A stretch of 46,946 nucleotides of DNA from Anaerolineaceae bacterium UBA5224 (GTDB lineage Bacteria; Chloroflexota; Anaerolineae; Anaerolineales; Anaerolineaceae). The translations under genes and the position numbers were made by a program. The notes under the pieces were generated by a model. The model had not been told where the DNA came from. It did no database searches and saw only the letters and a program-made list of their open reading frames with translations. Of this stretch, positions 13,607 to 46,946 are shown in pieces. The stretch spans positions 32,531 to 79,476 of the forward strand of contig DHUW01000090.1 of NCBI GenBank assembly GCA_002409365.1, given 5' to 3'. Positions within the stretch are counted from its first letter, which is position 1, and the number at the start of each line of letters is the position of its first letter.

Positions 13607-13673
13607 GAATCTATAGGTGTTTCACTCTTGTTGCGGGCACCTACCCTCCCCTGGTTTACATTGATTTATAACG

Positions 13674-13713: not shown

Positions 13714-13736
13714 TGAGTATTCAAAAAGGATAAACA

Positions 13737-15640: not shown

Positions 15641-15735
15641 GAGTTAGTCTCCTTGATTTTTATTTTACAGGATGGGCTGAATGATTTTCCATTCATACCT
15701 GTACATGCCCGACCATTTCAGATATGCCTTCAACG

Positions 15736-15841: not shown

Positions 15842-15980
15842 GATAGGACGCAAGCAGTAAAGAGAGGGTGGTAACTATTGACCATATGTGACGATGGTTT
15901 CGGCTTGCCGTTTTCCCTTCGTCAAGGTATCCTTAATGGTTGACAATTCGCATATTTTGAGATTTCACACGGAGCACTTT

Positions 15981-26104: not shown

Positions 26105-27839
26105 TTTTCCAAAACTCTTCTATTAATACTTTTTCGGCTTCCTGATTCCAGGTATGATCTGGTCCCATTTTTTCAGCAACTTTGGGGTAATTTTGAGCAA
26201 CTTCTCCCAACGACAATAGGGGCAGGTCTTCAAGCTGGGGGTAGATGATGATCTTTCCAGTGAAGGTGCCTGCCATCATTGCATTCATACCGGCAACGGC
26301 TTGTTTGAGCCCACCGATCGCTGCGACACTAAGGTTAGGGGAAAGAGCCCCGGAGACGGACTTTGACATAACAGTCTTCTGGTCAAAAACAGTTGATCCG
26401 GAAGTACCCGTGATTTGCATATTGTTGAGAAAGATATTGTTGAGGTCGATTTGGATGGTAGTGCCATTAGGAACTCCGGCAAAGAAGGTGAGCATGCCAT
26501 TTTTACCCAGGATCAAGGCAGCATTTTCCATCAATTTGGCGTTCGGTACGCATACGACCACATCATCTGCCATTTTCCCGCCGGAAAGTTCGCGGATGGT
26601 CTCAACAAGATCAACTCCCTCTTTATTGGTATTTACCAGGATGAGCTGCTTGCCATTCTTTTTGGCAATCGGATCGCCAGTCTGGCGCAATGCCTGCAGG
26701 CGTTCGTCGTTGATATCAGTCACAACCACGGTTTTGGGTCCGGGCACAAGTTCAAGTGCACGCTGAACATGCATCTGCCCCATCGGACCAGCCCCACCAA
26801 CCACGACCAGCAATCCATCTGCCATCAGTTCCGAGCGGTTCCGCTCTTCACCGTAGGCAGCGCTGATTTCGGTGCCTGTGGTGCCAATATAAGTGGTGTA
26901 GTGATAGTGAACCCGACCGGCGTCGATCACGGTCAGACCCTCCAGGGGTTCATCACTGACGATATTAAGTGTGCCGCGAAAGGCGATTTGTTTGGCAACT
27001 TCTGAAACCAGTTCAGCACCTTTAGGCTCTAGCAGAATGATGTCATCGAAACCTTTACCATTCGTGTTTTCTCGTGCAAAATCCGCGATCTGGTCTTTAT
27101 TCAACGCTCCTACCTCAACCACTTCAGCCTGGGCTTGGGAATGGACGAGCTCCAGGATTTGAGGTGTAGAGTTGCTCAGGAAAATTCTGGCTGGTTTTTC
27201 AAGCCCTTTTTCGAAGGTGAAGGTTTTATCCGAATGAAGAGGACCATCGATCCACATCAAGCCGCCAGCGAGGGGGCTCAAACGGCGCCTTTGGGTGTAA
27301 GCAGCTTCAACACATGCCCAGGGTTCGGTCAGAGCAGACTCTGAGTAGCCTAAATCATTCTGGACAGGAATGAGGTAATTCGGATCATCTGCATCAAAAA
27401 TCTCTTTCCCAATCAGGTGGTATTGGATCAAGCCACCAGGAATAGTGTAGCCATAGGCTGTGGCAACCTTATTCACATATATATCCGGTTGGATAGCGAG
27501 TTTTTGACCGGGTTTGAATCGGTTTTGCAAGTTTTCGCCAACTTTCACAACGGTGAAAGCGGCTTCATGACCAAGCCTGGTAGGTTCGACAGAGAGATTG
27601 CGGTTGTAGAGCTTGGGGTGCTGCCCACCTTGTTTGATCAATTTAACATCAGAAAAGCATAAACCAACAGCATCGACTCTGACTAAAATTTGATCCGGAC
27701 CTGGTTCCGGCATGGGGAAGAGTTCAGGTTTCCCATTGCGACCGACATTTTCCAAACCAGCGCCATACATGTTCCAGCCCATCACCTTCTCGGGCAGGGG
27801 ATAATTCAATTCGATGTACCTGCGGAATTTCTCGTTCAT
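26097..27839 (-). CDS. long-form zinc-type MDR dehydrogenase, L-sorbose-1-phosphate reductase (SorE)-like
   Basis: 580 aa. Motifs: GLCFSDVKLIKQG (Zn Cys), LGHEAAF (Zn His), GYSESALTEPWACV, then a Rossmann motif VVVGGAGPMGQMH only at about residue 345. An extra ~170-aa segment lies between the catalytic and nucleotide-binding parts. Confidence 0.65.
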   Translation of the reverse strand: MNEKFRRYIELNYPLPEKVMGWNMYGAGLENVGRNGKPELFPMPEPGPDQILVRVDAVGLCFSDVKLIKQGGQHPKLYNRNLSVEPTRLGHEAAFTVVKVGENLQNRFKPGQKLAIQPDIYVNKVATAYGYTIPGGLIQYHLIGKEIFDADDPNYLIPVQNDLGYSESALTEPWACVEAAYTQRRRLSPLAGGLMWIDGPLHSDKTFTFEKGLEKPARIFLSNSTPQILELVHSQAQAEVVEVGALNKDQIADFARENTNGKGFDDIILLEPKGAELVSEVAKQIAFRGTLNIVSDEPLEGLTVIDAGRVHYHYTTYIGTTGTEISAAYGEERNRSELMADGLLVVVGGAGPMGQMHVQRALELVPGPKTVVVTDINDERLQALRQTGDPIAKKNGKQLILVNTNKEGVDLVETIRELSGGKMADDVVVCVPNAKLMENAALILGKNGMLTFFAGVPNGTTIQIDLNNIFLNNMQITGTSGSTVFDQKTVMSKSVSGALSPNLSVAAIGGLKQAVAGMNAMMAGTFTGKIIIYPQLEDLPLLSLGEVAQNYPKVAEKMGPDHTWNQEAEKVLIEEFWKNE

Positions 27840-33506: not shown

Positions 33507-36305
33507 ATGCCTGAAATTGTTGCCCTGGACCTTGAAACAACGGGTTTGGACCCAAAAAACGACTCAATCATTGAAATCGGTGCGGTGAAATTCAACGAAA
33601 ACCGCACTATCGCTGAATATTCCAAACTGGTCAATCCGCGTAAACCGATCAATCAATTCATTACCAACCTGACCGGTATCACCAACAGCATGGTCATGAA
33701 TGCACCATTCATTATTGATGTGCTCCCCGAAATTCGCGATTTCGTCGGCGATGCTATTATTTTGGGGCAAAATATCGATTTCGATCTCAGTTTCTTCCAT
33801 CGCTACAAACAATTCACAGATAATCCCACCATCGACACCTACGAACTGGCAGCCATATTGATGCCAACCGCACACCGTTATGGTCTCGGTTCGCTGTCAA
33901 GACAACTGGGCATTGTGCTCACAAATGCCCACCGGGCGCTGGACGACGCCCGGGCAACGATGCAGGTTTATCAGCAGCTTCTCAAAAAAGTTACCAATCT
34001 GCCTGTCGAACTGGTGGTAGAGATCCTGCGCCTGAGCAAAGGTCTGAATTGGCAGGGCGAACTACCCTTCCGCTGGGCCTTACGCCACATGGCTGATCAA
34101 GGCATCCAGCCACGGCGACTCAGCCCGGATGATGAAGACCTGGTGTTTGGACTCGAGCGGTCCCCACGGACCAAAGGCTTGCAGCCAAATGAAACCCTGG
34201 TTCCACTCGATGGCGAAGAAATCGCCAGCACGCTTCAGCCCGGAGGTGCCTTCGCAAAGTATGACCCCAATTTTGAACATCGTCCGCAACAGGTTGAGGT
34301 GCTGCTCTCGGTTTGTAACGCTCTCAATCGTGGTGACCACCTGATGGTGGAAGCCGGAACCGGCACAGGAAAGTCGCTTGCCTACCTGATCCCGGCGGCT
34401 TATTGGGCGATGCAAAACGGTGAGAGAGTGGTGATCTCGACCAACACTATCGCTTTACAGGACCAATTAATAGAAAAAGACATCCCAGACCTGATCCAGG
34501 CGCTGGATATTGACTTGAAAGCCTCCGTCTTGAAAGGGCGTAACAATTATCTTTGCCCACGCAGACTTAAACTGATGCGCCGGAGAGGTCCCGAAAATGT
34601 GGATGAAATGCGTGTGTTGGGTAAGGTGCTGGTTTGGCTGCAAAGCAGTCAGTCCGGCGATCGGCGCGAGATCAACCTGAACGGACCGATGGAACGGCTG
34701 GTGTGGTCTCGCCTTTCTGCAGAAGATGAAGGCTGTAAGTTGGAGACCTGCCTGAAGCGCATGGGCGGCACCTGCCCCTTTTACAAGGCGCGTATGGCTG
34801 CTGAAAGTTCGCATATTTTAGTGATCAACCATGCCCTGCTCCTGGCGGATGCGGCTGCCGAAAACCAGGTTTTACCCGATTTCAACTACCTGATCGTGGA
34901 CGAAGCCCACCATCTTGAGGCTGCCACTACGGATGCGATGAGTTTCAGCCTGCGGGCAGTGGACGTAAACCGCACAGTGCGTGAGCTTGGTTCAACCGAG
35001 CAGGGCATTTTGGGTCGGTTGGTGAGCATCGCTGCTCCAGTACTAATGCCCGCTGACCTCGCTCTTTTGCTTCAATCGGTAAATTCAGCATCCGAACGTG
35101 CTTTTCGTTTTGATACCGACATGACTGCCTACTTCAAGGCGCTGGATTACCTCATGGAAGAAGTGCGCGAAGGCAAACCCCTGGGCACTTACCCGCAAAA
35201 AACTCGCATCTTGCCATCTACGCGCATGATTCCTGCCTGGCTGGACGTTGAGATAACCTGGGAACAAGCCAAAGACGACCTGGAAGAATTGCTGCGTATC
35301 GTCAGGAATATTCGCATATCGGTGCAAGGTGTGGATGGTATCGATCAGGAAGATGCGGAAGATATATTTGGGGCGCTTGCGCGAACTACGCAAACTCTCA
35401 ATGAGATCGACAGCAATCTTGAAAGCCTGACCATGAATCCGTCCGATGATCAGATCTATTGGGTAGAGATTGACCCTCTGCAGCTTCGTATGACCCTCCA
35501 GATCGCGCCGTTGCACATTGGCAGCCTGATGGAAAAGTACCTCTGGCACGAAAAATCCAGTGTGATCCTCACCTCGGCCACCCTTACTACGCACGGGGAG
35601 TTCGATTACCTGAAGCTCAGGCTGAACGGTGAGGATGCTCATGAATTAATGGTTGGTTCCCCCTTCGATTATGAGACCTCCGCCATGGTATACATCCCCC
35701 AGGACATTCCTGAACCGTCTGATAATTACGGTCATCAAAAAACCCTTGATGATACGATTATTCGATTGGCAAAGGCAACTGGAGGACGCATGCTGGTGCT
35801 GTTTACCTCGTATGCCCAGCTGCAGCGCACATCGCAAGACATCCAGGGACCCTTGCAGAAAGAGGATATCCAGGTCTACGAGCAGGGCGAAGGTTCCTCA
35901 GCGACTTCCTTGCTCGAGACCTTCAAGGAGGATCCAAGAGCTGTGCTTTTAGGAACACGTTCGTTCTGGGAAGGCGTCGACGTACCAGGGGAAGCGCTGC
36001 AAGTGTTGGTGATCGCCAAATTGCCCTTTGATGTACCCAGTGACCCCATTGTGGCAGCGCGCTCGGAGAGCTTTGACGATCCCTTCAACGAGTATATGCT
36101 TCCGGAAGCTATTTTGCGCTTCAGACAAGGGTTTGGTCGCCTTATCAGGACCCAAACTGACCGGGGAATTGTGGCAATTTTGGACAAACGTATCCTCAGC
36201 AAACAGTATGGGAGATTGTTTATTGAATCGCTGCCGCGTTGCAACACCATCCGCGGAAGTATCCTGAATCTTCCTGAAACTGCGGAAAAATGGTTGGGAT
36301 TATAA
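33507..36305 (+). CDS. dinG: DinG-family ATP-dependent helicase with N-terminal DnaQ-like 3'-5' exonuclease domain
   Basis: Exo I VALDLETTGLDPKNDSIIEIGAV, Exo III HRALDDA, Walker A VEAGTGTGKSLAYL, DEAH box VDEAHHLE. Four Cys (YLC...GCKLETCLKRMGGTC) lie between motifs I and II. Confidence 0.85.
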   Translation: MPEIVALDLETTGLDPKNDSIIEIGAVKFNENRTIAEYSKLVNPRKPINQFITNLTGITNSMVMNAPFIIDVLPEIRDFVGDAIILGQNIDFDLSFFHRYKQFTDNPTIDTYELAAILMPTAHRYGLGSLSRQLGIVLTNAHRALDDARATMQVYQQLLKKVTNLPVELVVEILRLSKGLNWQGELPFRWALRHMADQGIQPRRLSPDDEDLVFGLERSPRTKGLQPNETLVPLDGEEIASTLQPGGAFAKYDPNFEHRPQQVEVLLSVCNALNRGDHLMVEAGTGTGKSLAYLIPAAYWAMQNGERVVISTNTIALQDQLIEKDIPDLIQALDIDLKASVLKGRNNYLCPRRLKLMRRRGPENVDEMRVLGKVLVWLQSSQSGDRREINLNGPMERLVWSRLSAEDEGCKLETCLKRMGGTCPFYKARMAAESSHILVINHALLLADAAAENQVLPDFNYLIVDEAHHLEAATTDAMSFSLRAVDVNRTVRELGSTEQGILGRLVSIAAPVLMPADLALLLQSVNSASERAFRFDTDMTAYFKALDYLMEEVREGKPLGTYPQKTRILPSTRMIPAWLDVEITWEQAKDDLEELLRIVRNIRISVQGVDGIDQEDAEDIFGALARTTQTLNEIDSNLESLTMNPSDDQIYWVEIDPLQLRMTLQIAPLHIGSLMEKYLWHEKSSVILTSATLTTHGEFDYLKLRLNGEDAHELMVGSPFDYETSAMVYIPQDIPEPSDNYGHQKTLDDTIIRLAKATGGRMLVLFTSYAQLQRTSQDIQGPLQKEDIQVYEQGEGSSATSLLETFKEDPRAVLLGTRSFWEGVDVPGEALQVLVIAKLPFDVPSDPIVAARSESFDDPFNEYMLPEAILRFRQGFGRLIRTQTDRGIVAILDKRILSKQYGRLFIESLPRCNTIRGSILNLPETAEKWLGL

Positions 36306-36817: not shown

Positions 36818-37468
36818 ATGAAGAAATCTGCAATTGTCCTATTCGTGATCATCCTGCTGGTACTGGCGTTGGCGGGATGTAAGCGTTCAGCATCCAAAGC
36901 GCCAGAGGTGACACCGGAATATATGGAACAGGTGGGAACTCTTTTGCCAGTCGATCAACAAATTTTCAATGCAACCATGACCGCCCAGGCGATCATTGAA
37001 GAGTTCAATATGCCCACCCAAATGGTACCAAACGCCCAGGGCACTCCTGTGGCAATTACTCAAATGCCACCAACCCCCATCCCATCCCCGACCCCTACCA
37101 GTGCACCGACTCCCACCCTGCAGGCGCTTACCCGTCCGCAGAGTTGGGTGGTTCAGGGCGGCGAGAACGTCTACTGTCTCTCGCGTCGTTTTGATGTGGA
37201 CCCGGGCGATATGCTTGCGATCAACAACCTGTACGCAGGCAGCATGCTGAACATTGGCGATGTGCTGCTGATCCCCCAAACGGGTTCATGGCCTGGTGGT
37301 GACCGCCAACTTTTGCCACACCCGGACACCTGGACTGTGACCCCCGGTGAGACAGTGTTTGAAGTCGCCTGTGCTTATGGCGACGTCTGGCCAGAGCATA
37401 TCATCCAGGCAAACGGCTTAACTGAACCTTATGACATCAGCGGCATTGCTACGCTTCAGATTCCCTGA
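36818..37468 (+). CDS. lipoprotein with Pro/Thr-rich linker and two LysM domains
   Basis: GAGGAG RBS and ATG 36818. Signal peptide with lipobox LALAGC, linker PPTPIPSPTPTSAPTPT, and two LysM-like units (WVVQGGENVYCLSRRF...GDVLLIP; WTVTPGETVFEVACAY...IATLQIP). Confidence 0.8.
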   Translation: MKKSAIVLFVIILLVLALAGCKRSASKAPEVTPEYMEQVGTLLPVDQQIFNATMTAQAIIEEFNMPTQMVPNAQGTPVAITQMPPTPIPSPTPTSAPTPTLQALTRPQSWVVQGGENVYCLSRRFDVDPGDMLAINNLYAGSMLNIGDVLLIPQTGSWPGGDRQLLPHPDTWTVTPGETVFEVACAYGDVWPEHIIQANGLTEPYDISGIATLQIP

Positions 37469-37528
37469 TCAAAATCAAGTTAGAATAACAGGAGGCGCAA
37501 GCCTCCTGAATTTTTTAAAAGGAGCATC

Positions 37529-38086
37529 ATGGCAGAAACAACCATTATTAGTCGGGAACAATATCTACAAGGCTATATCTTCGACATTGAAAAGGTGCAT
37601 TTGCGATTACCTGACGGCAGAGAGCATACCTACGACCTGGTTGATCATGCCGATGCGGTCACAATTTTACCGATCGATGACGAAGGGATGGTCTATTTTG
37701 TCCGTCAATATCGGGTGGGAGCAGAAAAAGAGCTGCTCGAGCTGCCAGCTGGTGTGATCGATGATGGTGAGCAACCGCTGACAGCTGCTCACCGCGAACT
37801 GCAGGAGGAAATTGGGAGGGACGCGTCGCAGATGGAACGCCTTGGCGGATTTTTTATGGCTGCCGGCTATTCCAATGAATACATGCATGTTTTTTATGCC
37901 AGTCATTTACGCGAGAAGTCGCTTGAACAAGATGAGGATGAATTTCTTAGCCTGGTCAAGGTGGACCTACGCGAGGTTTTCGGTATGATCAGGTCAGGTG
38001 AAATCGAAGATGGAAAGACGATTTCCGCGTTCCTTTTGGCTATGCCGATGCTGAACGAATTGCTGATGGCGGCAAATGGTTTTTGA
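37529..38086 (+). CDS. NUDIX hydrolase (ADP-ribose pyrophosphatase-like)
   Basis: Nudix box GVIDDGEQPLTAAHRELQEEIG. 185 aa. Confidence 0.85.
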   Translation: MAETTIISREQYLQGYIFDIEKVHLRLPDGREHTYDLVDHADAVTILPIDDEGMVYFVRQYRVGAEKELLELPAGVIDDGEQPLTAAHRELQEEIGRDASQMERLGGFFMAAGYSNEYMHVFYASHLREKSLEQDEDEFLSLVKVDLREVFGMIRSGEIEDGKTISAFLLAMPMLNELLMAANGF

Positions 38087-38291
38087 TCAAATTTAATTAA
38101 AAAACTTACGCTTAGTTCTTGTTTACGAATGAATTTCCTGTCAGACTACCTTTACTAAACAGGTTTTTTTGAAGATGGAGGATCAAACTTGTACGGAGAC
38201 TTGACCGCAGGTTTTCAATATTCATGTCTCTCCCATTTTTCAATGTCAGGAATTCGAAGAGCGAAAGGTTTGTGTGGAGATATTTCAGATA

Positions 38292-39485
38292 TCAAGAGCG
38301 AGCTACCACCTGTTTGTCCTTAAACAGCTGATACACCATAAGACACAATAATCCCAAATATGCCAACGCCATAACCTGGTAATTGACTATTGGTCCAAAC
38401 CCATATAATGCAGGTAGGTAAGCATTGGCGTTGATCAACCAGATTAGTAAGGGCACATAAAAACGGTCAGGGTAGATAAACAGAAATATCACCGCAATCA
38501 AGTCAACAGTGAACATATACCTTTCGTGCATGGCGGGCAGGAAGTAAGTACAAAGCATGACTGTTAACATCGTCACGACGATGTAATCTCTATTCGTTAC
38601 GGTGACTTTGTCCGAAAACAAGATGATGTAGAAAACCATCAGAATTCCAAAAAGGATGATTATTCCAGTCTGGGAAAAATAGTTGTATTCATTTGGAAGC
38701 AGGCTGTAGAAATTCGAGTAATTCATAACCAAGGCAAGGTATTCACCTACCTGGGTGGAGTATGCACTAGTAATTTCAGAAAGAGGTTTGCCAAGGATCC
38801 AGGCAGGGATATAGATAAAAAAGTTAACCAATGGTATAAGCAAAAAATTAAGAGCCGAGAATTTTTTTTCTTTGAAATAAAGTAAAAACAACACAGGCAG
38901 GACGAACAATGCTTGTAGCTTGAATGCAAGAGCAATACCGTAGCTAACAAATGCCCAGGTGATCTTTTTCGTTAAGAAAAGATAGATAGCAATTATGATA
39001 AAGCAGGTATAAATAATGTCACACTGTCCCCAAACTGCGCTGTTGAGCAGAACAGGGGGGACAAACAAGGCCACCCCATAGGCTAAGTAGGGCAGTAGCT
39101 TGGTTTTGTCTAATTTGAATAAATGCCTAATGATTAGCATGATAAAGATTGCTGTGGTGAAATCAAAGAAAAATGAAACGGCTTTAATTTTACTTAGAAG
39201 CGAAAGGGGGAAATAATTGATGAATGCCAGGATATAAAGATAGGCAACGTTGTAATCGCTTTGTAGCGTAGGAATTCCAGCAAAACCGCCATTGAGTACC
39301 AGATATTCGCTCCATGGTCTGAACGAAAGGACATAATCACCTGCCGTAAAATAAATTTGGTCCTTTCGAATGAGCAATGCAAAAATCGTAATGATCAAAA
39401 AAAGAAATAGGTGTTTATAGTTTTGCAGGAATTGTATTACTGCACTTTCAGTTTTACTAATATCAATCGATAGATTCTTTTTCAA
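38292..39485 (-). CDS. polytopic GT-C-like glycosyltransferase (Gpi18/PIG-V-like or DUF2029-like mannosyltransferase)
   Basis: 397 aa with about 10 TM helices and the first-loop motif TAGDYVLSFRPWSEYL...QSDYNVAYLY. The DNA is visibly AT-rich. The family call is from memory of the COG5542-type pattern. Confidence 0.5.
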   Translation of the reverse strand: MKKNLSIDISKTESAVIQFLQNYKHLFLFLIITIFALLIRKDQIYFTAGDYVLSFRPWSEYLVLNGGFAGIPTLQSDYNVAYLYILAFINYFPLSLLSKIKAVSFFFDFTTAIFIMLIIRHLFKLDKTKLLPYLAYGVALFVPPVLLNSAVWGQCDIIYTCFIIIAIYLFLTKKITWAFVSYGIALAFKLQALFVLPVLFLLYFKEKKFSALNFLLIPLVNFFIYIPAWILGKPLSEITSAYSTQVGEYLALVMNYSNFYSLLPNEYNYFSQTGIIILFGILMVFYIILFSDKVTVTNRDYIVVTMLTVMLCTYFLPAMHERYMFTVDLIAVIFLFIYPDRFYVPLLIWLINANAYLPALYGFGPIVNYQVMALAYLGLLCLMVYQLFKDKQVVARS

Positions 39486-39510
39486 CTAAATTTCCTCCTA
39501 AAAAATGGAG

Positions 39511-41079
39511 TTATGGTTTTTTTTCAAAAACCAACCCCGTAGAATCCCTGTAAATAAGATTGTAACCTGCAATATTCCCTGCGTCGGCGTCTCGATAGAA
39601 CGACTGGCTACGTTCAAATTCATCCGGGTCTATGCCAGTGAGTCCCTCTTGCAGGTAATCACGGATACGCTGCTGCTGCAGGAGCAAGATGTCAAAATTT
39701 CCTTCGCGAATATATTCGTAAGTCATCAACTCAAATGAAGTATGTTTCTGCCAATTATTATCGTCCGGCAGGTAGAGGCGGTAGTCGAAGTAGACCGTCA
39801 AGGGTTGATCTAAATCTGGACCCAAGACCTGAGAGACTTTTTCATAGAACATTATAGATATGTTGTTATTCTCTCTCGCAAGATGAGTTTTAATGGTATT
39901 GATGTCCTGAATAATAAAAAAGGTACTCTGCACAGTAATAATCGCAAGGAAAACTATCAAAACTATCCTCGTTGCTGCCTTCATGTCGATCCACTCCTTG
40001 CGATCCGGAAAAGCTATCACCCAGGAAGAGAACATCGGCAAGGCAACAGGCAGCCAGTATTGATACTTGAAATGGCTAAAGAAAAAAATATAGACAGTCA
40101 AAGGCAAAAACCAGCTCAAAATTAAGACACTCAAAAATCGTCGCTGTTTGTTGAAAAGACCGATCAAAGCTAAAACAAAGGTGCTAATCAAAAAAATATA
40201 CTCACCATAGTAATAACGTAAAGTTGAGGGAAAACTTTTCAGTCCTTTTTCATAAACAACACCGTAACCATGCGCAAGTAAATCAGCTTGTTTTTTGGCG
40301 ACATTTAGGTACTCTGTTCTTGCCCAAGGAGATAGTAGGAACGGATTAGCTAGCACGAAGAATACAGCCAGAATAAGAATATATGCCAAGGAAGACAGCA
40401 AAGCTCTTTTCCATGTAACTTTCTTATCGACCAGAGCCCAGATAATTGTTAAGCCTACGGCAAGAAAAAAAAAGGCTCCCACTACTTTTGTGGCTATCAT
40501 GATGCCGCAAATTGCTGCTGAGAGGAAAAAATATTTTCCGAGGGAACGGTTGTCAATAACCAAAAGTAAAAGAATTAGGGACGAAAGTAACACTATCATT
40601 CCATCTGGGTGAAGCCACAATCCATTTTGTAGCGTTGCGGGAATGATAAGCAGAAACATGTATAAAACTATTGACCTGAATGACTTGAAACCATCCTGAA
40701 GGTAAACAAGAATCAGAATGCCAATAAGCATTGGAAAAACAGAGACGATTTGGCGTAATGCAAGCATAAGTGTTGGAATATTCTGTAATTGACCAGCCAA
40801 TTTAAATAGCAAAGCGACCAACCCTGAAAATCCAAAGAAGGGGAACCCGTAAAAGTAATATCCATAAAAGACAAACCCCCGCAAAAAGCTTTCCAGGTTT
40901 GCTTTAGGTGTGACCATTTCTTGTATAACAGGGAGTACTGCTGCTTCATCTGGTTCGAATATTCGAACCATCGCAAGGTTCGCAGAGCCAGTTTTGTTTA
41001 GGATGCCATACAACACTAAAAAAAACGCGCTTATGATAATCAGAAAAAGGATGATATGCGACTTTTTTTCTGTCTTCAC
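39511..41079 (-). CDS. polytopic membrane protein, GT-C (GT39/GT83, ArnT/PMT-like) candidate; paralog A
   Basis: 522 aa. The first-loop motif IFEPDEAAVLPVIQEM resembles the DE...M motif of ArnT/PMT enzymes. It has many TM helices and a C-terminal soluble domain of about 130 aa. It is a paralog of 41255..42853. Confidence 0.55.
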   Translation of the reverse strand: MKTEKKSHIILFLIIISAFFLVLYGILNKTGSANLAMVRIFEPDEAAVLPVIQEMVTPKANLESFLRGFVFYGYYFYGFPFFGFSGLVALLFKLAGQLQNIPTLMLALRQIVSVFPMLIGILILVYLQDGFKSFRSIVLYMFLLIIPATLQNGLWLHPDGMIVLLSSLILLLLVIDNRSLGKYFFLSAAICGIMIATKVVGAFFFLAVGLTIIWALVDKKVTWKRALLSSLAYILILAVFFVLANPFLLSPWARTEYLNVAKKQADLLAHGYGVVYEKGLKSFPSTLRYYYGEYIFLISTFVLALIGLFNKQRRFLSVLILSWFLPLTVYIFFFSHFKYQYWLPVALPMFSSWVIAFPDRKEWIDMKAATRIVLIVFLAIITVQSTFFIIQDINTIKTHLARENNNISIMFYEKVSQVLGPDLDQPLTVYFDYRLYLPDDNNWQKHTSFELMTYEYIREGNFDILLLQQQRIRDYLQEGLTGIDPDEFERSQSFYRDADAGNIAGYNLIYRDSTGLVFEKKP

Positions 41080-41254
41080 AGGCTCATTATAACCGCAGCA
41101 TGCCCCAATATGCGGTGATTTCTTATGGCTCCATTGTTGATGCTGAACGATTCGCCGATTGCTTCAAATGGTTGTTGATCAAGGATAAACACAAAAATGT
41201 GATAGGCTCCATTTTACTCCCTCATCAAAATCAGTTCGTAAGTATAATCATTGA

Positions 41255-42853
41255 ATGGCTAAGAAGAAACAGTGGGTAATCTTTTCATTAGTATTGCTAT
41301 CGATGCTTTCTTTTATAATCTATTCGATCCCAAACTCAAAAGCTTCTGAGAACATGTCAATGGTAACCATGTTTGAGCCGGACGAGTCTGCCATGGTCCC
41401 CATCATCAGGCGTATGGCTGGACCGCACGTAAATTTGGTTCACACTATCTACCGCATGGTAGCTTACGGGTTTTATCATTATGGATTCCCACATTTCGCC
41501 CCCTCAGCCATAATTCTCAAGCTTTTGACCTTTTTTGGGCAGGGAGAGAACTTGTCCCTGGTGATGCTCAGTCTGCGCCAACTGATCAGCGTACTACCGA
41601 TGATTGCAAGCTTGTGGGTGCTGGTTTACCTGCAGGACCAGTTCAAGACCTGGCGGTCAATTGCCTTATTGGTTTTTTTGCTGGCAGTTCCGGCGGTTGT
41701 GCAAAACGGTTACTGGTGGCACCCTGATGGCTTGGTAATGCTTTTTTCCAGCCTGGTGCTTTATTTCTTATGGAAAGATAAGCGCACTTTCGGGAAAAAT
41801 TTCTTTATTGCAGCCATTCTGTGTGGTATCCTGGTGGCATTGAAGGTGGTTGGGTTTTTCTTCTTTCTCACCATTGCTGTGGTTTTGATCTGGGGCTTGA
41901 TAGAAAAACGACTGACCTGGAAACAATTCTTCCTCAAGGGCATCCAGTTCATCCTGATCATGGCAGTCGCGATAGTGGTCGCCAGCCCCCACTTGCTGAT
42001 CCCAAACCACAGAGCTTTTGCCTTTACAGTCTTAAAGCGTGAAATATTTGAAACCTCCAAAGGTTATGGGATTTTTTATGAAAAAGGGCTGTTTTCGGCC
42101 TGGCCAACCATGCGTGCTTTTTATGGTGAGGCTGTTTTCCTGCTCACTGCGATAGGGGTATCAATCTGGAGTCTGTGGAATGAGAAGAGAAGGTTCTTAA
42201 CCGTATTGATCCTGAGCTGGTTCATTCCCCTTTCAATCCATCTATTTTTCTTTTCCCATTTTAAGTATCAGTATTGGCTTCCTGTCGCCATCCCCCTATT
42301 TTCAAACCTGGCTTTTTTGCTGCCTGGGGGCAAGGGAGAGGGTGTCCAGCAAGACAAAAATAAAGTCGTCAAACTAATTTTGCTCCTTATAGTAGTTGTT
42401 CAGTTCGGGTTGTTCCTGGTGAAGGACGTCGAATTATTTAAGGAACGTAACAACCGGGCGGAGAATAATCCGGCAATCCAGTTTTATGACAAAGCCCTGG
42501 TAGAGCTGGCTTCGGTCACCCAGGATAAACTGGTTTACTATGACTATCGCTTGTATATGCTTGAAAAACCTGGCTGGTTTGTTGAAAATTCATTTGATTT
42601 ATTGACCTATGATTACATCCGATCACGAAATTTTGACCTGTTATTCCTTTCGCAGCAGCGGATCCTGGATTATTTGCACCCGTCAGCAGTGGGTCTTGAT
42701 CCTTCGACCTTTGCCCAAAGCCAAGAATTTTATCGTGACGCAAATGAAGAAACACTGGAGGGGTACAAACTTTTATTAAGAGATGATACGGTTCTCCTGT
42801 ACATCAGGCAGGACCTCTGCAAGAAATATTACAGTCCTGGTCGTTGCGACTGA
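41255..42853 (+). CDS. polytopic membrane protein, GT-C (ArnT/PMT-like) candidate; paralog B
   Basis: 532 aa with MFEPDESAMVPIIRRM. It shares long identical blocks with paralog A (FFFSHFKYQYWLPVA, LVYLQD, YEKGL, DYRLY, FYRDA). Confidence 0.55.
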   Translation: MAKKKQWVIFSLVLLSMLSFIIYSIPNSKASENMSMVTMFEPDESAMVPIIRRMAGPHVNLVHTIYRMVAYGFYHYGFPHFAPSAIILKLLTFFGQGENLSLVMLSLRQLISVLPMIASLWVLVYLQDQFKTWRSIALLVFLLAVPAVVQNGYWWHPDGLVMLFSSLVLYFLWKDKRTFGKNFFIAAILCGILVALKVVGFFFFLTIAVVLIWGLIEKRLTWKQFFLKGIQFILIMAVAIVVASPHLLIPNHRAFAFTVLKREIFETSKGYGIFYEKGLFSAWPTMRAFYGEAVFLLTAIGVSIWSLWNEKRRFLTVLILSWFIPLSIHLFFFSHFKYQYWLPVAIPLFSNLAFLLPGGKGEGVQQDKNKVVKLILLLIVVVQFGLFLVKDVELFKERNNRAENNPAIQFYDKALVELASVTQDKLVYYDYRLYMLEKPGWFVENSFDLLTYDYIRSRNFDLLFLSQQRILDYLHPSAVGLDPSTFAQSQEFYRDANEETLEGYKLLLRDDTVLLYIRQDLCKKYYSPGRCD

Positions 42854-42884
42854 TCAGAACACTCCAGAATCAGGCAGCCTATCC

Positions 42885-43349
42885 ATGTCTAAAGAATCCT
42901 TAACCAGCGATCAGACAGAGATAGTTGATGCCGTGGGCACCTCAAAAGTTTTTCTTTTGACCCAGAGACTTTGGCAGATACGTCTGCTGAGGTTCCTGGT
43001 TGTGGGGGCGATCAACACACTTTTCAGTTACCTGGTATATGCCGTTTTAATTCTGATAGGCAGCCACTACAGCCTGGCAACCCTGATTTCCACCATTTTG
43101 GGGGTGATCTTCAACTTTTTCACGACAGGAAGAATAGTTTTTCGCATTTTGGACAACAAACGTTTCGTCATGTTCGTCCTGGTCTATGCTTTCACTTATT
43201 TTGTCAACGTAATGTTTCTACGCTTGCTGATCGATGGTCTGGAAATGGATAAACTTCTCGCCGGAGCATTGGTCACTCTGCCAGTTGCTTTGCTCTCATA
43301 TTTCTTGAATGCCAATGTAACTTTTAAAGACAAACCATCAAATCTATAA
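42885..43349 (+). CDS. GtrA family membrane protein (lipid-linked sugar translocation/accessory)
   Basis: LLRFLVVGAINTLFSYLVYAVLILIG plus three further TM helices. ATG 42885 lies after the paralog B stop. The ORF-track start 42783 overlaps the upstream gene. Confidence 0.75.
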   Translation: MSKESLTSDQTEIVDAVGTSKVFLLTQRLWQIRLLRFLVVGAINTLFSYLVYAVLILIGSHYSLATLISTILGVIFNFFTTGRIVFRILDNKRFVMFVLVYAFTYFVNVMFLRLLIDGLEMDKLLAGALVTLPVALLSYFLNANVTFKDKPSNL

Positions 43350-43368
43350 CCAAACCACAAGGAACTGT

Positions 43369-44154
43369 ATGCAGTATCCAGACCAACTAAACCAGATCTC
43401 GAGTATAAGTGCAGTTTTTCCAGCCTACAACGATGCCGGTACGATCCCCAGCATGGTATTGACGGCACTGCTTGCTTTGCGTCGGGTGACGGATGATTAT
43501 GAAGTGATTGTGACCAACGATGGCAGCAAGGATAACACCGGCATTGTGCTGGACGAATTAGCTTCACGTTACCCTGAACTGAAGGTAATTCATCACCCTC
43601 AAAACCAGGGCTATGGCTGCGCCTTGCGAAGCGGTTTTACCAACGCCAGCAAAGACTGGGTCTTCTATACGGATGGCGATGGGCAATACAACCCGCTGGA
43701 ATTGATCAATCTGACGCAGGCGGTGACAGAGGAGATCGATGTGGTTAACGGCTACAAGATTTCGCGCCACGACCCTCTGATCAGAGTTGTGATCGGCAGG
43801 GTTTACCACCATTTAGTCAAGATCGCATTTGGCTTCAAGCTGCGCGATGTCGATTGCGATTTCAGGCTTATCAGGCGGGAATTATTCGAAAATGTTGCTT
43901 TGGAAAGCCGCACCGGCACGATCTGCCTGGAAATGGTCAAAAAATTCCAGGATGCAGGATACAAATTTGCTGAGGTACCGGTGAATCATTACTACCGCTC
44001 CTACGGTCGTTCGCAATTTTTCCGTTGGAAACATTTATGGACAACGTTTGAACACCTGACGCAGCTCTGGTGGAAACTGGTAATTAAGAAAGATCATCTG
44101 TCTTCTGAAGAACCCAGAGACAATCTGAGCACGACTGAAGAAAGGCAAGTGTGA
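43369..44154 (+). CDS. GT2 polyprenol-phosphate glycosyltransferase (GtrB/ArnC/DPM1-like)
   Basis: ISAVFPAYNDAGTI, VTNDGSKDNT, YTDGDGQY (DxD), soluble, about 260 aa. Confidence 0.8.
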   Translation: MQYPDQLNQISSISAVFPAYNDAGTIPSMVLTALLALRRVTDDYEVIVTNDGSKDNTGIVLDELASRYPELKVIHHPQNQGYGCALRSGFTNASKDWVFYTDGDGQYNPLELINLTQAVTEEIDVVNGYKISRHDPLIRVVIGRVYHHLVKIAFGFKLRDVDCDFRLIRRELFENVALESRTGTICLEMVKKFQDAGYKFAEVPVNHYYRSYGRSQFFRWKHLWTTFEHLTQLWWKLVIKKDHLSSEEPRDNLSTTEERQV

Positions 44155-44157
44155 GTT

Positions 44158-45147
44158 ATGGATTACAGCAGTTTCGAAGGGAAAAAAGTGTTGATCACCG
44201 GCGGGCTGGGTTTCATCGGTTCAAACCTGGCGATCAGACTGGTCGAACTGGGCGCCGATGTAACCCTGGTTGATAGTCTGATCCCGACTTATGGGGGCAA
44301 CTTGTGGAATGTGGAGCCGATTGAAGGCAAAGTGCGAATCAACATTTCAGACGTGCGCGATCCATTCTCGATGAAGTATCTGGTGGCTGGTCAGGATTAT
44401 CTTTTCAACCTGGCTGGGCAAACCAGCCATGTTGACTCCATGGAAGACCCTGCCACCGACCTGGCGATCAACGTCCAGGCGCAACTTCAAATTCTGGAAG
44501 CCTGCCATCATTACAATCCTATTGTGAAAATTGTCTTCGCCAGCACCAGGCAGGTTTACGGTCGTCCAAGGCAAATTCCAGTCAACGAAGACCATCCCCT
44601 CTCTCCGGTCGACCTGAATGGCGTGCACAAACTGGCAGCAGAACAATATCACCGCCTTTTCAATAACATATATGGAATTCAAGCCGTGATCCTGAGGTTG
44701 ACCAATACCTATGGTCCCAGGATGCGTGTAAAGGATGCCCGGCAGACATTTTTGGGCATCTGGATCAGGCGGCTGCTTGAAGGTGAGCCGATTCTAATTT
44801 ACGGTGACGGCACCCAACTGCGCGATTACAACTACGTGGACGATGTAGTGGATGCCCTTCTCAGTGCTGCACAAAGCAGGGATTGCTGTGGAGAGGCGCT
44901 GAACCTTGGGTCAGAAGAAGTTTTTTCGCTTACCGAAACCGCTAAAGTTTTTCTAAAGCTTCACCCAGAAGGTCAAATAAAGTATGTGCCCTTCCCGAAA
45001 GACCGCCTGGCGATCGATATCGGAGACTACCAGGGGGATTGCAGTCGTATTCAAAAGGTATTGGGATGGTCTGCAAAAACGAAGTTTGAGGATGGGATGC
45101 GCAAGACATTGGCGTATTACGAGCAAAATCGTGAGAAATATTGGTGA
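44158..45147 (+). CDS. extended SDR, NAD-dependent sugar-nucleotide epimerase/dehydratase family
   Basis: KVLITGGLGFIGSNLAIRL (GxxGxxG), FASTRQVYG and NTYGPRM. At the expected YxxxK position the sequence reads NGVHKLAAE. Confidence 0.75.
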   Translation: MDYSSFEGKKVLITGGLGFIGSNLAIRLVELGADVTLVDSLIPTYGGNLWNVEPIEGKVRINISDVRDPFSMKYLVAGQDYLFNLAGQTSHVDSMEDPATDLAINVQAQLQILEACHHYNPIVKIVFASTRQVYGRPRQIPVNEDHPLSPVDLNGVHKLAAEQYHRLFNNIYGIQAVILRLTNTYGPRMRVKDARQTFLGIWIRRLLEGEPILIYGDGTQLRDYNYVDDVVDALLSAAQSRDCCGEALNLGSEEVFSLTETAKVFLKLHPEGQIKYVPFPKDRLAIDIGDYQGDCSRIQKVLGWSAKTKFEDGMRKTLAYYEQNREKYW

Positions 45148-45152
45148 GAAAT

Positions 45153-46268
45153 ATGAGCGACTTAAAGATACCTTCCGCTGATCCAAAGGCTGACTATGCG
45201 CAGCATGCGGCAGAGATTTCGCAAGCCATCCAAAATGTCTTGCAGAGTGGTCAATATATACTGGGTCCGGATGTAAAGCTTTTTGAGGAGACTTTCGCCA
45301 AATTTGTGGGTGTGGAAAATTGCGTATCAGTCAACAGCGGTACTGACTCTCTGGTTTTGGCTTTGAAAGCATTAGAAGTCGGCGTAGGCGATGAGGTTAT
45401 TACCGTCTCGCATACTTCCGTTGCTACTGTGGCGGCGATTGAACTTGTTGGTGCGCTGCCAGTATTGATTGACATCGACCCTGATACCTATTGCCTTGAC
45501 CCCAAAAAACTGGATGAATTAGTCAGCTCCAAAACAAAAGCAATCATTCCGGTTCATTTGTACGGTCAACCGGCGAATATGGATCCAATCCTGGAATTTG
45601 CACACCTGAAAAAAATTGCCGTCATAGAGGACTGTTCACAGGCTCATGGTGCAACCATCCGAGGGAAAATGGTCGGTGGGTTCGGAGACCTGGCGTGTTT
45701 CAGTTTCTATCCCACAAAAAACCTGGGAGCCATTGGTGATGGCGGCGCGGTTGTGACCAACCGATCCGATTTGGCAGAGAAATTGCGCCTTCTTCATCAA
45801 TATGGCTGGGAAGAACGCTACATCAGCAAGCTGGCAGGGATAAACAGCCGCATGGACGAACTGCAAGCGGCCATTCTGAACGTAAAGTTGCCTTTCCTGC
45901 CTGAAAAAATCCATCGAAGGCGGGCAATCGCTTCGATCTATGATCAGAGATTGGCAGATACCGGGTTTGTGCTGCCGAAACACCAGTCTGGCACAGAACA
46001 CGCAATGCACCTGTACGTGATCCAGGCTGATAAACGCGATGAACTCCAGGCGTTTATGAAGGAAAATGGCGTGGGCACCGGGATTCACTACCCCCTTGCT
46101 GTGCACCAGCAGCCAGCATACCTGGGAAGATTGCGCGGTTCGAACGAACTACCTGTCACAGAAAAGATCGTACCGCGGATCCTTAGCCTGCCGATGTATC
46201 CTCAATTATCCGACGAAAATGTTCATCGGGTTTGTGATTTATTGGTAGATTGGAGCAAACATTATTGA
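45153..46268 (+). CDS. DegT/DnrJ/EryC1/StrS (ArnB-like) PLP-dependent sugar aminotransferase
   Basis: ADYAQHAAEISQAIQNVLQSGQYILGPDVKLFEETFAKFVG, and the PLP-Lys context CFSFYPTKNLGAIGDGGAV. ATG 45153 follows the upstream stop (45147). Confidence 0.85.
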   Translation: MSDLKIPSADPKADYAQHAAEISQAIQNVLQSGQYILGPDVKLFEETFAKFVGVENCVSVNSGTDSLVLALKALEVGVGDEVITVSHTSVATVAAIELVGALPVLIDIDPDTYCLDPKKLDELVSSKTKAIIPVHLYGQPANMDPILEFAHLKKIAVIEDCSQAHGATIRGKMVGGFGDLACFSFYPTKNLGAIGDGGAVVTNRSDLAEKLRLLHQYGWEERYISKLAGINSRMDELQAAILNVKLPFLPEKIHRRRAIASIYDQRLADTGFVLPKHQSGTEHAMHLYVIQADKRDELQAFMKENGVGTGIHYPLAVHQQPAYLGRLRGSNELPVTEKIVPRILSLPMYPQLSDENVHRVCDLLVDWSKHY

Positions 46269-46286
46269 TTGGGTGTAGAAAAACTC

Positions 46287-46315
46287 TTGCCAAATCAAAA
46301 GTGCTCAGTTATAAT
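46287..46315 (+). promoter_or_regulatory. sigma70-type promoter for tRNA-Val
   Basis: TTGCCA (46287..46292), 17-nt spacer, TATAAT (46310..46315), 11 nt before the tRNA. Confidence 0.6.
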
Positions 46316-46326
46316 CCAGATTCCTT

Positions 46327-46400
46327 GGGCGGTTAGCTCAGTTGGTTAGAGCGTTGCGTTGACATCGCAAAGGTCGTAGGTTCGAGTCCTATACCACCCA
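46327..46400 (+). tRNA. tRNA-Val (anticodon GAC)
   Basis: 74-nt cloverleaf folded by hand. D arm GCTC/GAGC, anticodon stem TTGCG/CGCAA, loop TTGACAT, T arm GTAGG-TTCGAGT-CCTAT. The acceptor GGGCGGT/ACCACCC has one C:A mismatch. Confidence 0.85.
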
Positions 46401-46403
46401 CAC

Positions 46404-46434
46404 AAAAAACATCCTCTGAGAGGATGTTTTTTGT
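46404..46434 (+). terminator. rho-independent terminator after tRNA-Val
   Basis: aaaaaacatcc tctgaga ggatgtttttt followed by gtt. Confidence 0.85.
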
Positions 46435-46491
46435 TAATTCGTAGAGGGGCTTTCATAGTAAAAGTGTTATTGGTCTCAATGTAAAAGTATC

Positions 46492-46520
46492 TTGACAGCA
46501 ATTTTTCTCTCTGGTAATAT
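46492..46520 (+). promoter_or_regulatory. sigma70-type promoter for the downstream lipoprotein gene
   Basis: TTGACA (46492..46497), 17-nt spacer, TAATAT (46515..46520). Confidence 0.6.
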
Positions 46521-46671
46521 CGATATAAGTGGGCAAATCTGTCTGCCCGTGAAACCATTTGGCTTGGAACTTACCAGACTGGTAACGTGGAGAGCTAGTC
46601 GAAATATCTTCCAAAGAACAAATTCCATTTTCGCCATATTTTTTTTAAAAATTTCATAGAAGGAGTAATAG

Positions 46672-46946
46672 ATGAAAAGAAAGAAGTTTTTCGTCCAACT
46701 GGTACTGTTGATCATGAGCTTGATGTTGATTTTTTCAGTAACAGCCTGCCGTACAGCAGAACCCGCTCCGGCCGAAGTCACGGAAGAGGTTCCTGTTGAA
46801 GTAGTTCCCGAAGAAAAAGATTACAAAATCGGCATCATGACTGGTACAGTCTCCCAGGGTGAAGAGGAATACCAGGAAGCCATGAACCAGATCGCCAAGT
46901 ACGGCGACATGATCGTGCATGCCACCTACCCTGACAACTTCTCCAC
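46672..46946 (+). CDS. lipoprotein, probable periplasmic-binding-protein-fold solute-binding protein (DUF3798/BMP-like); 3' end off the window
   Basis: GAAGGAG RBS. MKRKKFFVQLVLLIMSLMLIFSVTAC has a lipobox. An acidic linker follows, then KIGIMTGTVSQGEEEYQEA, which resembles the start of binding-protein folds. Confidence 0.6.
   Translation, partial: MKRKKFFVQLVLLIMSLMLIFSVTACRTAEPAPAEVTEEVPVEVVPEEKDYKIGIMTGTVSQGEEEYQEAMNQIAKYGDMIVHATYPDNFS

Follow-up and report, generated by a model that had tools for sequence, protein, structure and literature searches.

A putative GtrA/GT2/GT-C glycosylation cluster with a tyrosine-less SDR and a DegT aminotransferase in an Anaerolineaceae genome

The seven genes and their products

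The present work concerns a seven-gene cluster located at positions 38292-46268 of a 46,946-nt stretch (the window, i.e. the whole DNA that was analyzed) of contig DHUW01000090.1 from Anaerolineaceae bacterium UBA5224. This region consists of exactly seven open reading frames (ORFs), whose coordinates are those of an initial annotation of this DNA. Pfam cutoffs confirm the four protein families that this annotation had assigned: a GtrA protein, a family 2 glycosyltransferase (GT2), an extended short-chain dehydrogenase/reductase (SDR) and a DegT aminotransferase. The three other ORFs encode membrane proteins, named here M1, M2 and M3 (Table 1). Altogether, these genes probably specify a multi-component extracytoplasmic glycosylation system of the GtrA/GT2/GT-C type that possesses its own supply of amino sugar.

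Table 1. Genes and intergenic region of the cluster (positions in the window; aa, amino acids; PLP, pyridoxal phosphate; TM, transmembrane)
Feature	Coordinates	Strand	Description
M1	38292..39485	-	397-aa membrane glycosyltransferase of predicted GT-C fold; second gene of the M2-M1 operon
M2	39511..41079	-	522-aa glycosyltransferase of predicted GT-C fold, paralog of M3, IFEPDE first-loop motif; first gene of the M2-M1 operon
Divergent intergenic region	41080..41254	.	175 bp between the M2-M1 and M3-GtrA-GT2-SDR-DegT operons (ORF coordinates)
M3	41255..42853	+	532-aa glycosyltransferase of predicted GT-C fold, MFEPDE loop-1 motif; first gene of the donor operon
GtrA	42885..43349	+	GtrA-family small 4-TM protein, 154 aa; ORF open from 42783
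GT2	43369..44154	+	candidate polyprenyl-phosphate glycosyltransferase of GT-A fold, 261 aa, without TM segment
SDR	44158..45147	+	atypical extended SDR, GalE-like overall
DegT	45153..46268	+	DegT/DnrJ/EryC1-family PLP aminotransferase, 371 aa; 375-aa ORF open from 45141

In the plus-strand operon, the successive gaps are of 31, 19 and 3 nt and are followed by an overlap; a tRNA-Val gene (46327-46401) closes the cluster. Promoters are presumed to lie in the divergent intergenic region; a scan of positions 37400-46946 for consensus promoters and terminators yielded signals at shuffle background and was uninformative. GtrA and DegT probably start later than their longest ORFs, at the positions given in Table 1, since they are called so in matching public metagenome-assembled genomes (MAGs). 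Identical proteins are encoded by contigs of Anaerolineaceae MAGs (GCA_038562485.1 and GCA_002410005.1), and by at least 22 contigs overall. In the public gene calls for the species of the window (loci L087, L088 and L089), M3 has 497 aa and, in two of the three records, M2 has 486 aa. These calls drop the first TM helix, which is conserved among homologs; the true products are likely those of the longer ORFs (532 and 522 aa). The M2-M1 pair has a lower GC content than the donor operon (0.38-0.40, with 0.40 for M2, versus 0.45-0.50) and a lower GC content at third codon positions (0.43-0.46 versus 0.51-0.57). Furthermore, it is missing in the closest relatives (L006 and L010), where a NUDIX gene directly abuts M3. 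Therefore, M2-M1 looks like a later two-gene insertion in this genome.

M2 and M3 are paralogs (45% identity over 519 residues, E=3e-167), which confirms the pair of ~525-aa paralogs sharing an (I/M)FEPDE motif that had been described initially. Their motifs, RIFEPDE and TMFEPDE, are located in the first loop, after the first TM helix; F40, D43 and E44 are invariant in 52 sequences of the M2/M3 family and D50 is invariant in 48 sequences of the M1 family. These positions are consistent with the catalytic acid that GT-C enzymes typically carry in their first loop. M1, M2 and M3 all failed to reach any Pfam or NCBIfam cutoff, including the gathering cutoffs of the described GT-C families that were tested (GtrII PF14264, GT87 PF09594, PMT PF02366 and PMT_2 PF13231). 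M3 has a sub-threshold match with GtrII (20.5 bits for a cutoff of 30), and M1 and M2 have no Pfam match. Weak matches were found in some other members of the families: GtrII (13 of 52) and GT87 (four of 52) for the M3 family, and GT87 for 29 of the 48 members of the M1 family. Searches of the Protein Data Bank (PDB) with the single sequences of M1 and M3 gave no match, and the one made with the M3-family profile gave nothing meaningful.

Since these sequence and Pfam searches came up empty, the GT-C label was checked by fold comparison: the structures of M3 and M1 were predicted (AF2) from family alignments and compared to the PDB by Foldseek. For the M3 model (pLDDT 91.7, pTM 0.88), the top ~38 PDB matches are all GT-C enzymes, with TM scores of ~0.45-0.56 and no outstanding family. 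They include ALG12 (E=2.6e-7), STT3, ALG9, DPY19, ArnT (TM score 0.52), AglB/PglB and Pmt4, as well as AftA, PimE and EmbA/B/C. The best matches of the M1 model (pLDDT 93.2, pTM 0.92) are ALG6 (E=4e-5, TM score 0.67), ALG3 (0.67), GPI-MT-I (0.63) and PIG-U, with a range of 0.57-0.67; moreover, the M1 family profile retrieves GPI mannosyltransferase 1 from the PDB (E=9e-10). The GT-C fold initially proposed for the membrane proteins is thus borne out, being confirmed by high-confidence models and Foldseek for M1 and M3, and by paralogy to M3 for M2. M1 appears distantly GT87/DUF2029-, ALG3/ALG6- and PIG-M-like. In the model, M3 comprises ~11 TM helices and a conserved C-terminal alpha/beta domain of ~130 aa (residues ~400-532) harboring many invariant aromatic and charged residues. 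The helix count and the positive-inside N-terminus would place this domain, a candidate acceptor-binding module, outside the membrane. A scan of one genome per species detected the M2/M3 family in 140 species, nearly all of them Anaerolineae, the hosts including Anaerolineaceae, Brevefilum, Bellilinea, Pelolinea submarina and Ornatilinea apprima. Within the loci retrieved, the cultured P. submarina and O. apprima carry only orphan M3-like genes.

The GtrA protein matches PF04138 ('GtrA/DPMS transmembrane domain', E=1.8e-19, 70.5 bits for a cutoff of 26.1) and displays several hydrophobic (TM-type) segments in a hydropathy scan; from its family, it would be either a flippase or a membrane partner of GT2. 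GT2 itself matches PF00535 (E=9.5e-26, 91 bits). Its best NCBIfam matches (ArnC, PgfS, dolichyl-P hexose transferase and PpgS) are all far below the equivalog cutoffs (86.6 bits for a cutoff of 529 for ArnC, the best named match; 53 bits for PpgS), and its best PDB matches are ArnC, DPMS and the GtrB-like sll0501. It shares 25% identity with E. coli ArnC and 28% identity with E. coli GtrB (yfdGHI set) but is devoid of any hydrophobic segment, whereas these two proteins have two C-terminal TM helices. These similarities make GT2 a candidate member of the polyprenyl-phosphate glycosyltransferase group, with ArnC, DPMS, GtrB, PpgS and AglJ-type enzymes as its closest relatives.

The SDR covers the whole PF01370 model (positions 1-240 of 240, E=2.7e-51, 175 bits), and, among solved structures, it is closest to the Thermotoga GalE 4zrm (133 bits alone, 239 bits with the family profile). 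Its GxxGxxG NAD site is intact, with invariant G15, G18 and G21, as in extended SDRs, but it lacks the catalytic Ser/Thr-Tyr-Lys triad. All five printed structure alignments span the region of the catalytic Tyr of YxxxK; in the two that were traced residue by residue (GalE, 4zrm, and UXS, 4lk3), this position is occupied by N154 ('NGVHK'). T130-R131-Q132 are found at the place of T-S-E in UXS and ArnA and of T-D-E in RmlB. T130, R131, Q132, N154, K158, H91, D93, D152 and GxxGxxG are invariant in 121 close homologs and also in an alignment of 52 sequences reaching down to 37% identity. As the list of closest homologs stopped at 66% identity, the breadth of the family was assessed by a search of representatives and a metagenome scan. 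Among 1.84 billion representatives, 2606 SDR clusters were retrieved at E<=1e-30; the T-R-Q...D-N...K pattern is present in ~110 of the best 150 clusters, with Tyr-containing relatives interspersed, and N154 is kept in 69 of 73 metagenomic relatives. These invariant residues and this breadth argue that the Tyr-less SDR represents a large subfamily under selection and not a decaying gene. None of the solved SDR relatives that we inspected has this active site. Our literature searches found neither a Tyr-less nucleotide-sugar SDR, nor an SDR-type 3-dehydrogenase, nor a comparable Chloroflexota system; being incomplete, they are no proof of absence. Two known functions were considered and rejected for this protein: 4,6-dehydratase, its best NCBIfam label (157 bits for a cutoff of 365), because the Tyr and the Asp-Glu pair are missing, and ArnA-like decarboxylase, because the catalytic Tyr and the acid/base pair are missing.

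DegT strongly matches PF01041 (E=4e-123, 412 bits), and its Schiff-base lysine is K193 (numbering of the 375-aa ORF), within FSFYPTKNLGAIGDGG. Its scores against solved structures are 384 bits for 7b0d, 314 for DesV/2oga, 313 for QdtB/3frk and 286 for WbpE, and 7n63 and 5u1z (WlaRG) are also among its best solved relatives; the scores are lower for ArnB and perosamine synthase (191-199 bits, with 191 for ArnB). DesV, QdtB, WlaRG and WbpE are all C-3 aminotransferases. QdtB has been named a C3 aminotransferase, and a motif at the Schiff-base lysine has been reported to separate C3 from C4 aminotransferases (10.1101/2021.09.04.459008). The FSFYPTKNLGAIGDGG segment of DegT matches the lysine-region motif of 7b0d, DesV, QdtB, 7n63 and 5u1z, compared to FSFHAIKNITCAEGG in ArnB; likewise, the KNLGxxGDGG-type lysine region reads FSFYPTKNLGAIGDGGAVVT in DegT and FSFHAIKNITCAEGGLIVT in ArnB. 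The protein reaches 238 bits on the ArnB model NF008658 (cutoff of 631) and 238-252 bits on the ArnB and PseC models, and it shares 36% identity (188 bits) with E. coli ArnB. The best scores being those to C3 enzymes and the lysine motif being of C3 type, DegT is assigned to the C3 type by similarity and motif. C-3 is therefore the most likely position of the amine, although we give about even odds to its being installed there. The amination of a nucleotide-4-keto sugar, assumed in the initial annotation, does not agree with this grouping.

The closest solved relative of DegT, 7b0d (~55% identity, as estimated by eye), is deposited as 'Glutamine--scyllo-inositol transaminase', and literature searches on 7B0D found no paper on this entry. 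Its substrate, once identified, might reveal the sugar made by the cluster.

Conservation of the cluster and of the SDR-DegT pair

We searched 84 related loci and carried out an all-against-all comparison of the 15 loci that carry M3, GtrA, GT2, SDR and DegT genes. The order M3-GtrA-GT2-SDR-DegT is kept in 11 of them (L003-L009, L013-L015 and L083; 53-81% identity for M3), and the five genes are rearranged but still linked in the four others (L001, L016, L023 and L032). These five genes are the only ones common to all 15 loci, whose flanks differ. This five-gene unit, found in ~15 species-level genomes of Anaerolineae, provides the co-conservation that the initial annotation had proposed to look for by a synteny check; since the unit recurs in so many species with different flanks, its clustering is not due to chance. 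No ketoisomerase, N-acyl- or formyl-transferase or deacetylase is co-conserved in the 15 loci. Within the unit, M3-GtrA-GT2 are adjacent in ~17 species-level loci, and GT2 is the commonest and most constant neighbor of M3-type genes. M2-M1 constitutes a second conserved unit, M1 being paired with an M2- or M3-like gene in 15 of the 84 loci. In one of these loci (L024), a DegT-SDR-GT2-GtrA block is divergent from an M2-M1 pair (79%/81% identity). As this locus has no M3, M2-M1 can serve the donor genes without any other GT-C protein.

The SDR-DegT cassette is widespread. With the SDR family alignment, 80 metagenomic loci were found, including 53 N-type SDRs (i.e. with the Asn of the window SDR) that have neighbors on both sides. 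DegT is immediately adjacent to 39 of these 53 SDRs. Their surroundings include: (i) ordinary polysaccharide clusters (n = 15) with GT2s, methyltransferases, a Wzx-type flippase and a GT4-family WecA-like initiating transferase, (ii) an adjoining hexapeptide acyltransferase (n = 5), and (iii) an ArnC-like or window-type GT2 within four genes (n = 16), accompanied in six cases by GT-C proteins of the PMT_2+TPR type. Furthermore, an N-type SDR and DegT are fused in one polypeptide in P0392 (707 aa) and in the partial P0404, P0450 and P0469. Since the cassette also sits in Wzx/GT4 clusters, it most likely acts on a nucleotide sugar. It has also been joined more than once, in different lineages, to lipid-carrier/GT-C modules.

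Some additional features of these metagenomic loci deserve mention. Some of the SDR-DegT fusions may be partial or result from gene-calling artefacts, P0392 being complete for both domains. In L135, L137, L145, L153 and L165, the gene immediately upstream of the N-type SDR-DegT pair encodes the hexapeptide-repeat (LbH) acyltransferase; as expected, such a neighbor fits the making of an N-acetylated 3-amino sugar. S-adenosylmethionine (SAM) methyltransferases (cluster c2) recur beside the cassette. In L166 (positions 1-16981), four PMT_2+TPR GT-C paralogs are located upstream and two downstream of SDR-DegT-methyltransferase-GT2; this GT2 is 58% identical to that of the window, and the same donor cassette is therein associated with a much larger GT-C array.

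Proposed pathway, alternatives and surroundings

In the pathway that we propose and consider somewhat more likely than not, the SDR would oxidize a common nucleotide sugar to a keto sugar by means of a non-canonical base, probably at C-3 since its partner aminotransferase appears to be of C3 type. DegT would then aminate this keto sugar, giving a nucleoside diphosphate (NDP)-amino sugar, most probably a 3-amino-3-deoxy sugar. Its amine would stay free, as the co-conserved genes include neither an N-acyl nor an N-formyl transferase. The soluble GT2 together with GtrA would load the amino sugar on polyprenyl phosphate on the cytoplasmic side of the membrane, in a split similar to that of the mycobacterial PpgS/Rv3632 or of the catalytic and TM domains of DPMS, and GtrA would also mediate or assist flipping. 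Outside the membrane, M3 (and likewise M2 in this genome) would transfer the sugar to an envelope acceptor, using the invariant loop-1 Asp/Glu (FEPDE) for catalysis. As for M1, the constant companion of M2, it may attach another sugar, whose lipid-linked donor is possibly a different one. The general logic of the initial annotation, i.e. a cytoplasmic sugar-modifying pair acting with GT2, GtrA and GT-C proteins, is thus upheld by the families and their co-conservation. Its suggestion that up to three GT-C enzymes draw on one donor is plausible for M3 and M2 and putative for M1. A broader proposal, which we put forward as tentative, is that the Tyr-less 'T-R-Q / D-N-x-x-x-K' SDR (as a C-3 oxidase with a non-canonical base) and the C3-type DegT constitute a widespread two-enzyme route leading directly from a common nucleotide sugar to a 3-amino-3-deoxy sugar. 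Polyprenyl phosphate would be the carrier of this sugar in Anaerolineae, where a class-restricted and previously undescribed GT-C family would put it on the wall of a bacterium without lipopolysaccharide (LPS), as a cationic modification comparable in role to that by 4-amino-4-deoxy-L-arabinose (Ara4N) or galactosamine (GalN) but distinct in chemistry and target.

Several points weigh against the pathway described first. Every catalytic step, the amination position, the donor lipid and the acceptor are what we infer from genes and models. L010 and L012 keep M3-GtrA-GT2 (85-86% identity for GT2) with no SDR-DegT nearby, and eight loci have an M3-like gene followed by a 66-72% identical GT2 without SDR-DegT; because of these loci, GT2 might use a common sugar. 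Lys158 is replaced too in a few relatives of the SDR, and a Tyr-less SDR may not be an oxidase or may use another mechanism. Donors of the polyprenyl-P-mannose type are typical of the relatives of M1 (GT87, PIG-M and ALG3), and M1 may therefore have a donor other than that of M2 and M3. It should also be emphasized that C3/C4 calls made from sequence are statistical, with unresolved cases reported (10.1101/2021.09.04.459008). Finally, Chloroflexota are described as one of the monoderm lineages, devoid of an LPS-containing outer membrane (PMC10608941). The organism without lipid A assumed in the initial annotation therefore stands at the level of the phylum, the host being regarded as LPS-less from this description.

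Other explanations of the same genes were weighed. In an Arn-like pathway, the SDR would act by 4-oxidation, by 4,6-dehydration or by decarboxylating UDP-glucuronic acid; the resulting NDP-4-keto sugar would be aminated at C-4, loaded on polyprenyl phosphate and used by the GT-C proteins. The gene logic is equal overall, ArnC is the best named match of GT2, the ArnB and PseC models match DegT, and ArnT is among the structural neighbors of M3. We nevertheless consider this pathway unlikely: DegT scores 286-384 bits with C3 enzymes versus 191 with ArnB and has the KNLGxxGDGG motif of C3 type, and the SDR, 23% identical to the C-terminal domain of ArnA, has neither the Tyr nor the acidic-pair residues (Asp/Glu or Ser/Glu) that characterize 4,6-dehydratases and decarboxylases. 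In addition, neither the window nor the related loci encode equivalents of the ArnA formyltransferase, ArnD or ArnE/F, and every Arn equivalog score is far below its cutoff. The loci that harbor GT2 without SDR-DegT (L010, L012 and the eight loci with GT-C and GT2 alone) would also suit a modification occurring on the carrier. In such a scheme, GT2 would first make polyprenyl-P-hexose or -N-acetylhexosamine out of a common UDP-sugar, and SDR and DegT would oxidize and aminate the lipid-linked sugar before flipping, as DprE1/E2, the ORF13 epimerase and ArnD do. Auxiliary SDRs acting on undecaprenyl phosphate-linked sugars provide a precedent (PMC11127046), and an unusual substrate could be reflected in the unusual active site of the SDR. 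This scheme is improbable in our opinion, as the cassette is equally common in Wzx/GT4 clusters and beside LbH acyltransferases, without any polyprenyl-P GT2 or GT-C; moreover, DegT is alignable over its full length to soluble nucleotide-sugar aminotransferases (~55% by eye) and neither SDR nor DegT has a membrane segment of note.

The loss of the catalytic Tyr across the SDR family, occasionally accompanied by that of the Lys, and an active site not matched in the solved relatives inspected would suit a non-redox SDR (a nucleotide-sugar-binding partner, a scaffold or an isomerase). In that case, the keto sugar aminated by DegT would originate from other genes of the genome, for example from the action of RmlB and a 3,4-ketoisomerase or of a 3-dehydrogenase of the Gfo/Idh/MocA family. 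We give this explanation little credence, as low as that given to modification on the carrier. T-R-Q, D152, N154 and the NAD-binding motif are under strong purifying selection, strict adjacency and fusion to DegT are typical of consecutive enzymes, and no ketoisomerase or other oxidase is co-conserved. The only Gfo/Idh/MocA gene of the window (22787-23758) lies 20 kb away; as it is part of a catabolic operon (NanE/kinase) and shows no synteny with the cluster, it was rejected as a supplier of 3-keto sugar. At the extreme, the adjacency could be meaningless, with the GT-C proteins, GtrA/GT2 and SDR/DegT belonging to separate pathways. Many M3-family genes are indeed orphans, with several paralogs per genome, and M2-M1 appears to be a later, lower-GC insertion. 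Such an explanation is very improbable given that the five-gene unit is found with changing flanks and in several rearranged forms in ~15 species, and that the combination of SDR-DegT, GT2 and GT-C arose also with the unrelated PMT_2-TPR family.

Among the other genes of the window, one had been suggested as possibly drawing on the same donor as the cluster. This gene (15888-19478, plus strand) encodes a PMT_2-NHL protein of 1196 aa, with an N-terminal GT-C domain of the PMT_2 type (E=8e-14) and C-terminal NHL beta-propeller repeats (E=1.7e-41). It is 19 kb away from the cluster, behind unrelated operons; none of the 84 related loci contains it, and BLAST shows no similarity between it and the PMT_2-TPR proteins found beside the cassette elsewhere. 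Therefore, a functional link with the cluster was rejected. The remainder of the window encodes a GNAT protein, a phosphoesterase, a sugar-catabolism block, a DinG-like helicase, a LysM protein and a NUDIX hydrolase. An apparently complete operon of a Tad/Flp-type pilus (2721-13606, plus strand) includes genes of TadE-like pseudopilins, Tad/TadG-like and SAF/RcpC-like proteins, a ParA-like ATPase, two T2SSF platform proteins, a TPR protein and a T2SSE ATPase. A 580-aa protein resembling zinc-type alcohol dehydrogenases (26097-27839, minus strand) has an unusually long insert of ~230 residues between its ADH_N (47-119) and ADH_zinc_N (353-483) domains. Finally, a 932-aa protein (33507-36305, plus strand) combines an RNase T/DnaQ-like exonuclease and a DinG-type (DEAD_2/Helicase_C_2) helicase; its gene adjoins the LysM-NUDIX genes in close relatives too, this arrangement being conserved.

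Anaerolineae are abundant filamentous bacteria of anaerobic digesters, sediments and soils, and, to our knowledge, almost nothing is known about their envelope glycans. The cluster offers a concrete and testable route for amino-sugar surface decoration in this class. Its overall architecture is already known, and LPS-less bacteria are expected to carry such systems. Two aspects appear to be new: (i) the combination of a putative C3-type aminotransferase and a Tyr-less SDR with a lipid-carrier system, with three predicted GT-C enzymes at one locus, and (ii) an M2/M3 GT-C family confined to Anaerolineae and devoid of Pfam or CAZy-type assignment. This study also draws attention to a very common and apparently unstudied subfamily of Tyr-less SDRs whose members are closely tied to a sugar aminotransferase and in some cases fused to it. 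If these SDRs are new nucleotide-sugar oxidases, thousands of 'NAD-dependent epimerase/dehydratase' annotations would have to be revised, and 3-amino sugars would become accessible to glycoengineering in few steps.

Comparison with known systems

The seven proteins were compared directly (BLASTP) with those of E. coli arnBCADTEF and yfdGHI (gtrAB-like). The SDR is 23% identical to the C-terminal domain of ArnA and scores 40 bits on the ArnA model NF005998 (cutoff of 777). M3 matches ArnT with E=0.002, and in Foldseek it is no closer to ArnT than to ALG12 or STT3. None of the seven proteins has a significant match with ArnD, the ArnA formyltransferase domain or ArnE/F, and the absence of ArnA formyltransferase and ArnD noted initially is thus corroborated. 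The likeness to Arn then put forward comes down to similarities at the superfamily level: these comparisons point to no ortholog of ArnA, ArnB, ArnC/ArnT, ArnD or ArnE/F and indicate that the cluster is not an arn locus. The Arn system (PmrHFIJKLM) and the cluster have the same set of components: an oxidase of the SDR type, an aminotransferase of the DegT family, a GT2, a GT-C enzyme and a small membrane protein contributing to a flippase. In both cases, the product is probably a sugar whose free amine makes it cationic. Unlike Arn, the cluster has an aminotransferase of apparent C3 type and a Tyr-less SDR, is devoid of formyltransferase and ArnD, and encodes GtrA instead of ArnE/F. Furthermore, Arn decorates lipid A, whereas the phylum of the host is regarded as lacking LPS.

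The architecture of the cluster is that of the multi-component systems that encode together a cytoplasmic GT2, a GtrA-family protein and an outside GT-C enzyme, i.e. GtrA-GtrB-GtrC of Shigella/Salmonella, CsbB(GtlA)-GtcA-YfhO(GtlB) of Bacillus/Listeria and the pentofuranose systems (Kelly et al. 2024, PMC11127046). The sugar of such systems can be diversified by additional enzymes acting in the cytoplasm. Those hallmarks of these systems that sequences and models can show are present in the cluster: a GT2 of the appropriate group, GtrA, a predicted GT-C fold with an acidic first-loop motif, and co-inheritance. Compared to the three-component systems, the cluster adds a dedicated pair of SDR and aminotransferase, so its donor would be an amino sugar. 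It also differs from them by a GT2 without TM helices, by three GT-C proteins at one locus, and by M2/M3 belonging to no described Pfam family and being confined to Anaerolineae.

In Mycobacterium tuberculosis, PpgS (Rv3631), Rv3632 and Rv3779 ensure the decoration of arabinogalactan by galactosamine (PMC3485146 and reference 30 therein). As proposed for the cluster, a GT2 without its own membrane domain is associated with a small membrane protein and a GT-C enzyme moves an amino sugar from polyprenyl-P, the acceptor being a wall polysaccharide in a bacterium without LPS. Unlike the cluster, this system involves neither SDR nor aminotransferase, since PpgS uses ready-made UDP-N-acetylgalactosamine whose amine is freed later; in addition, the similarity of PpgS to the GT2 of the cluster is weak (53 bits) and its GT-C enzyme belongs to a different family.

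The remaining comparison concerns the routes of DesV, QdtB, WlaRG and WbpE, whose aminotransferases share 286-314 bits and the lysine motif with the DegT of the cluster. Their N-acetyltransferases, QdtC and WbpD, have counterparts in the LbH N-acetyltransferases located beside SDR-DegT in some metagenomic loci. In these C3 routes, the 3-keto sugar is provided by RmlB and a cupin ketoisomerase or by a Gfo/Idh/MocA oxidase, whereas the only partner of DegT in the cluster is a Tyr-less GalE-like SDR.

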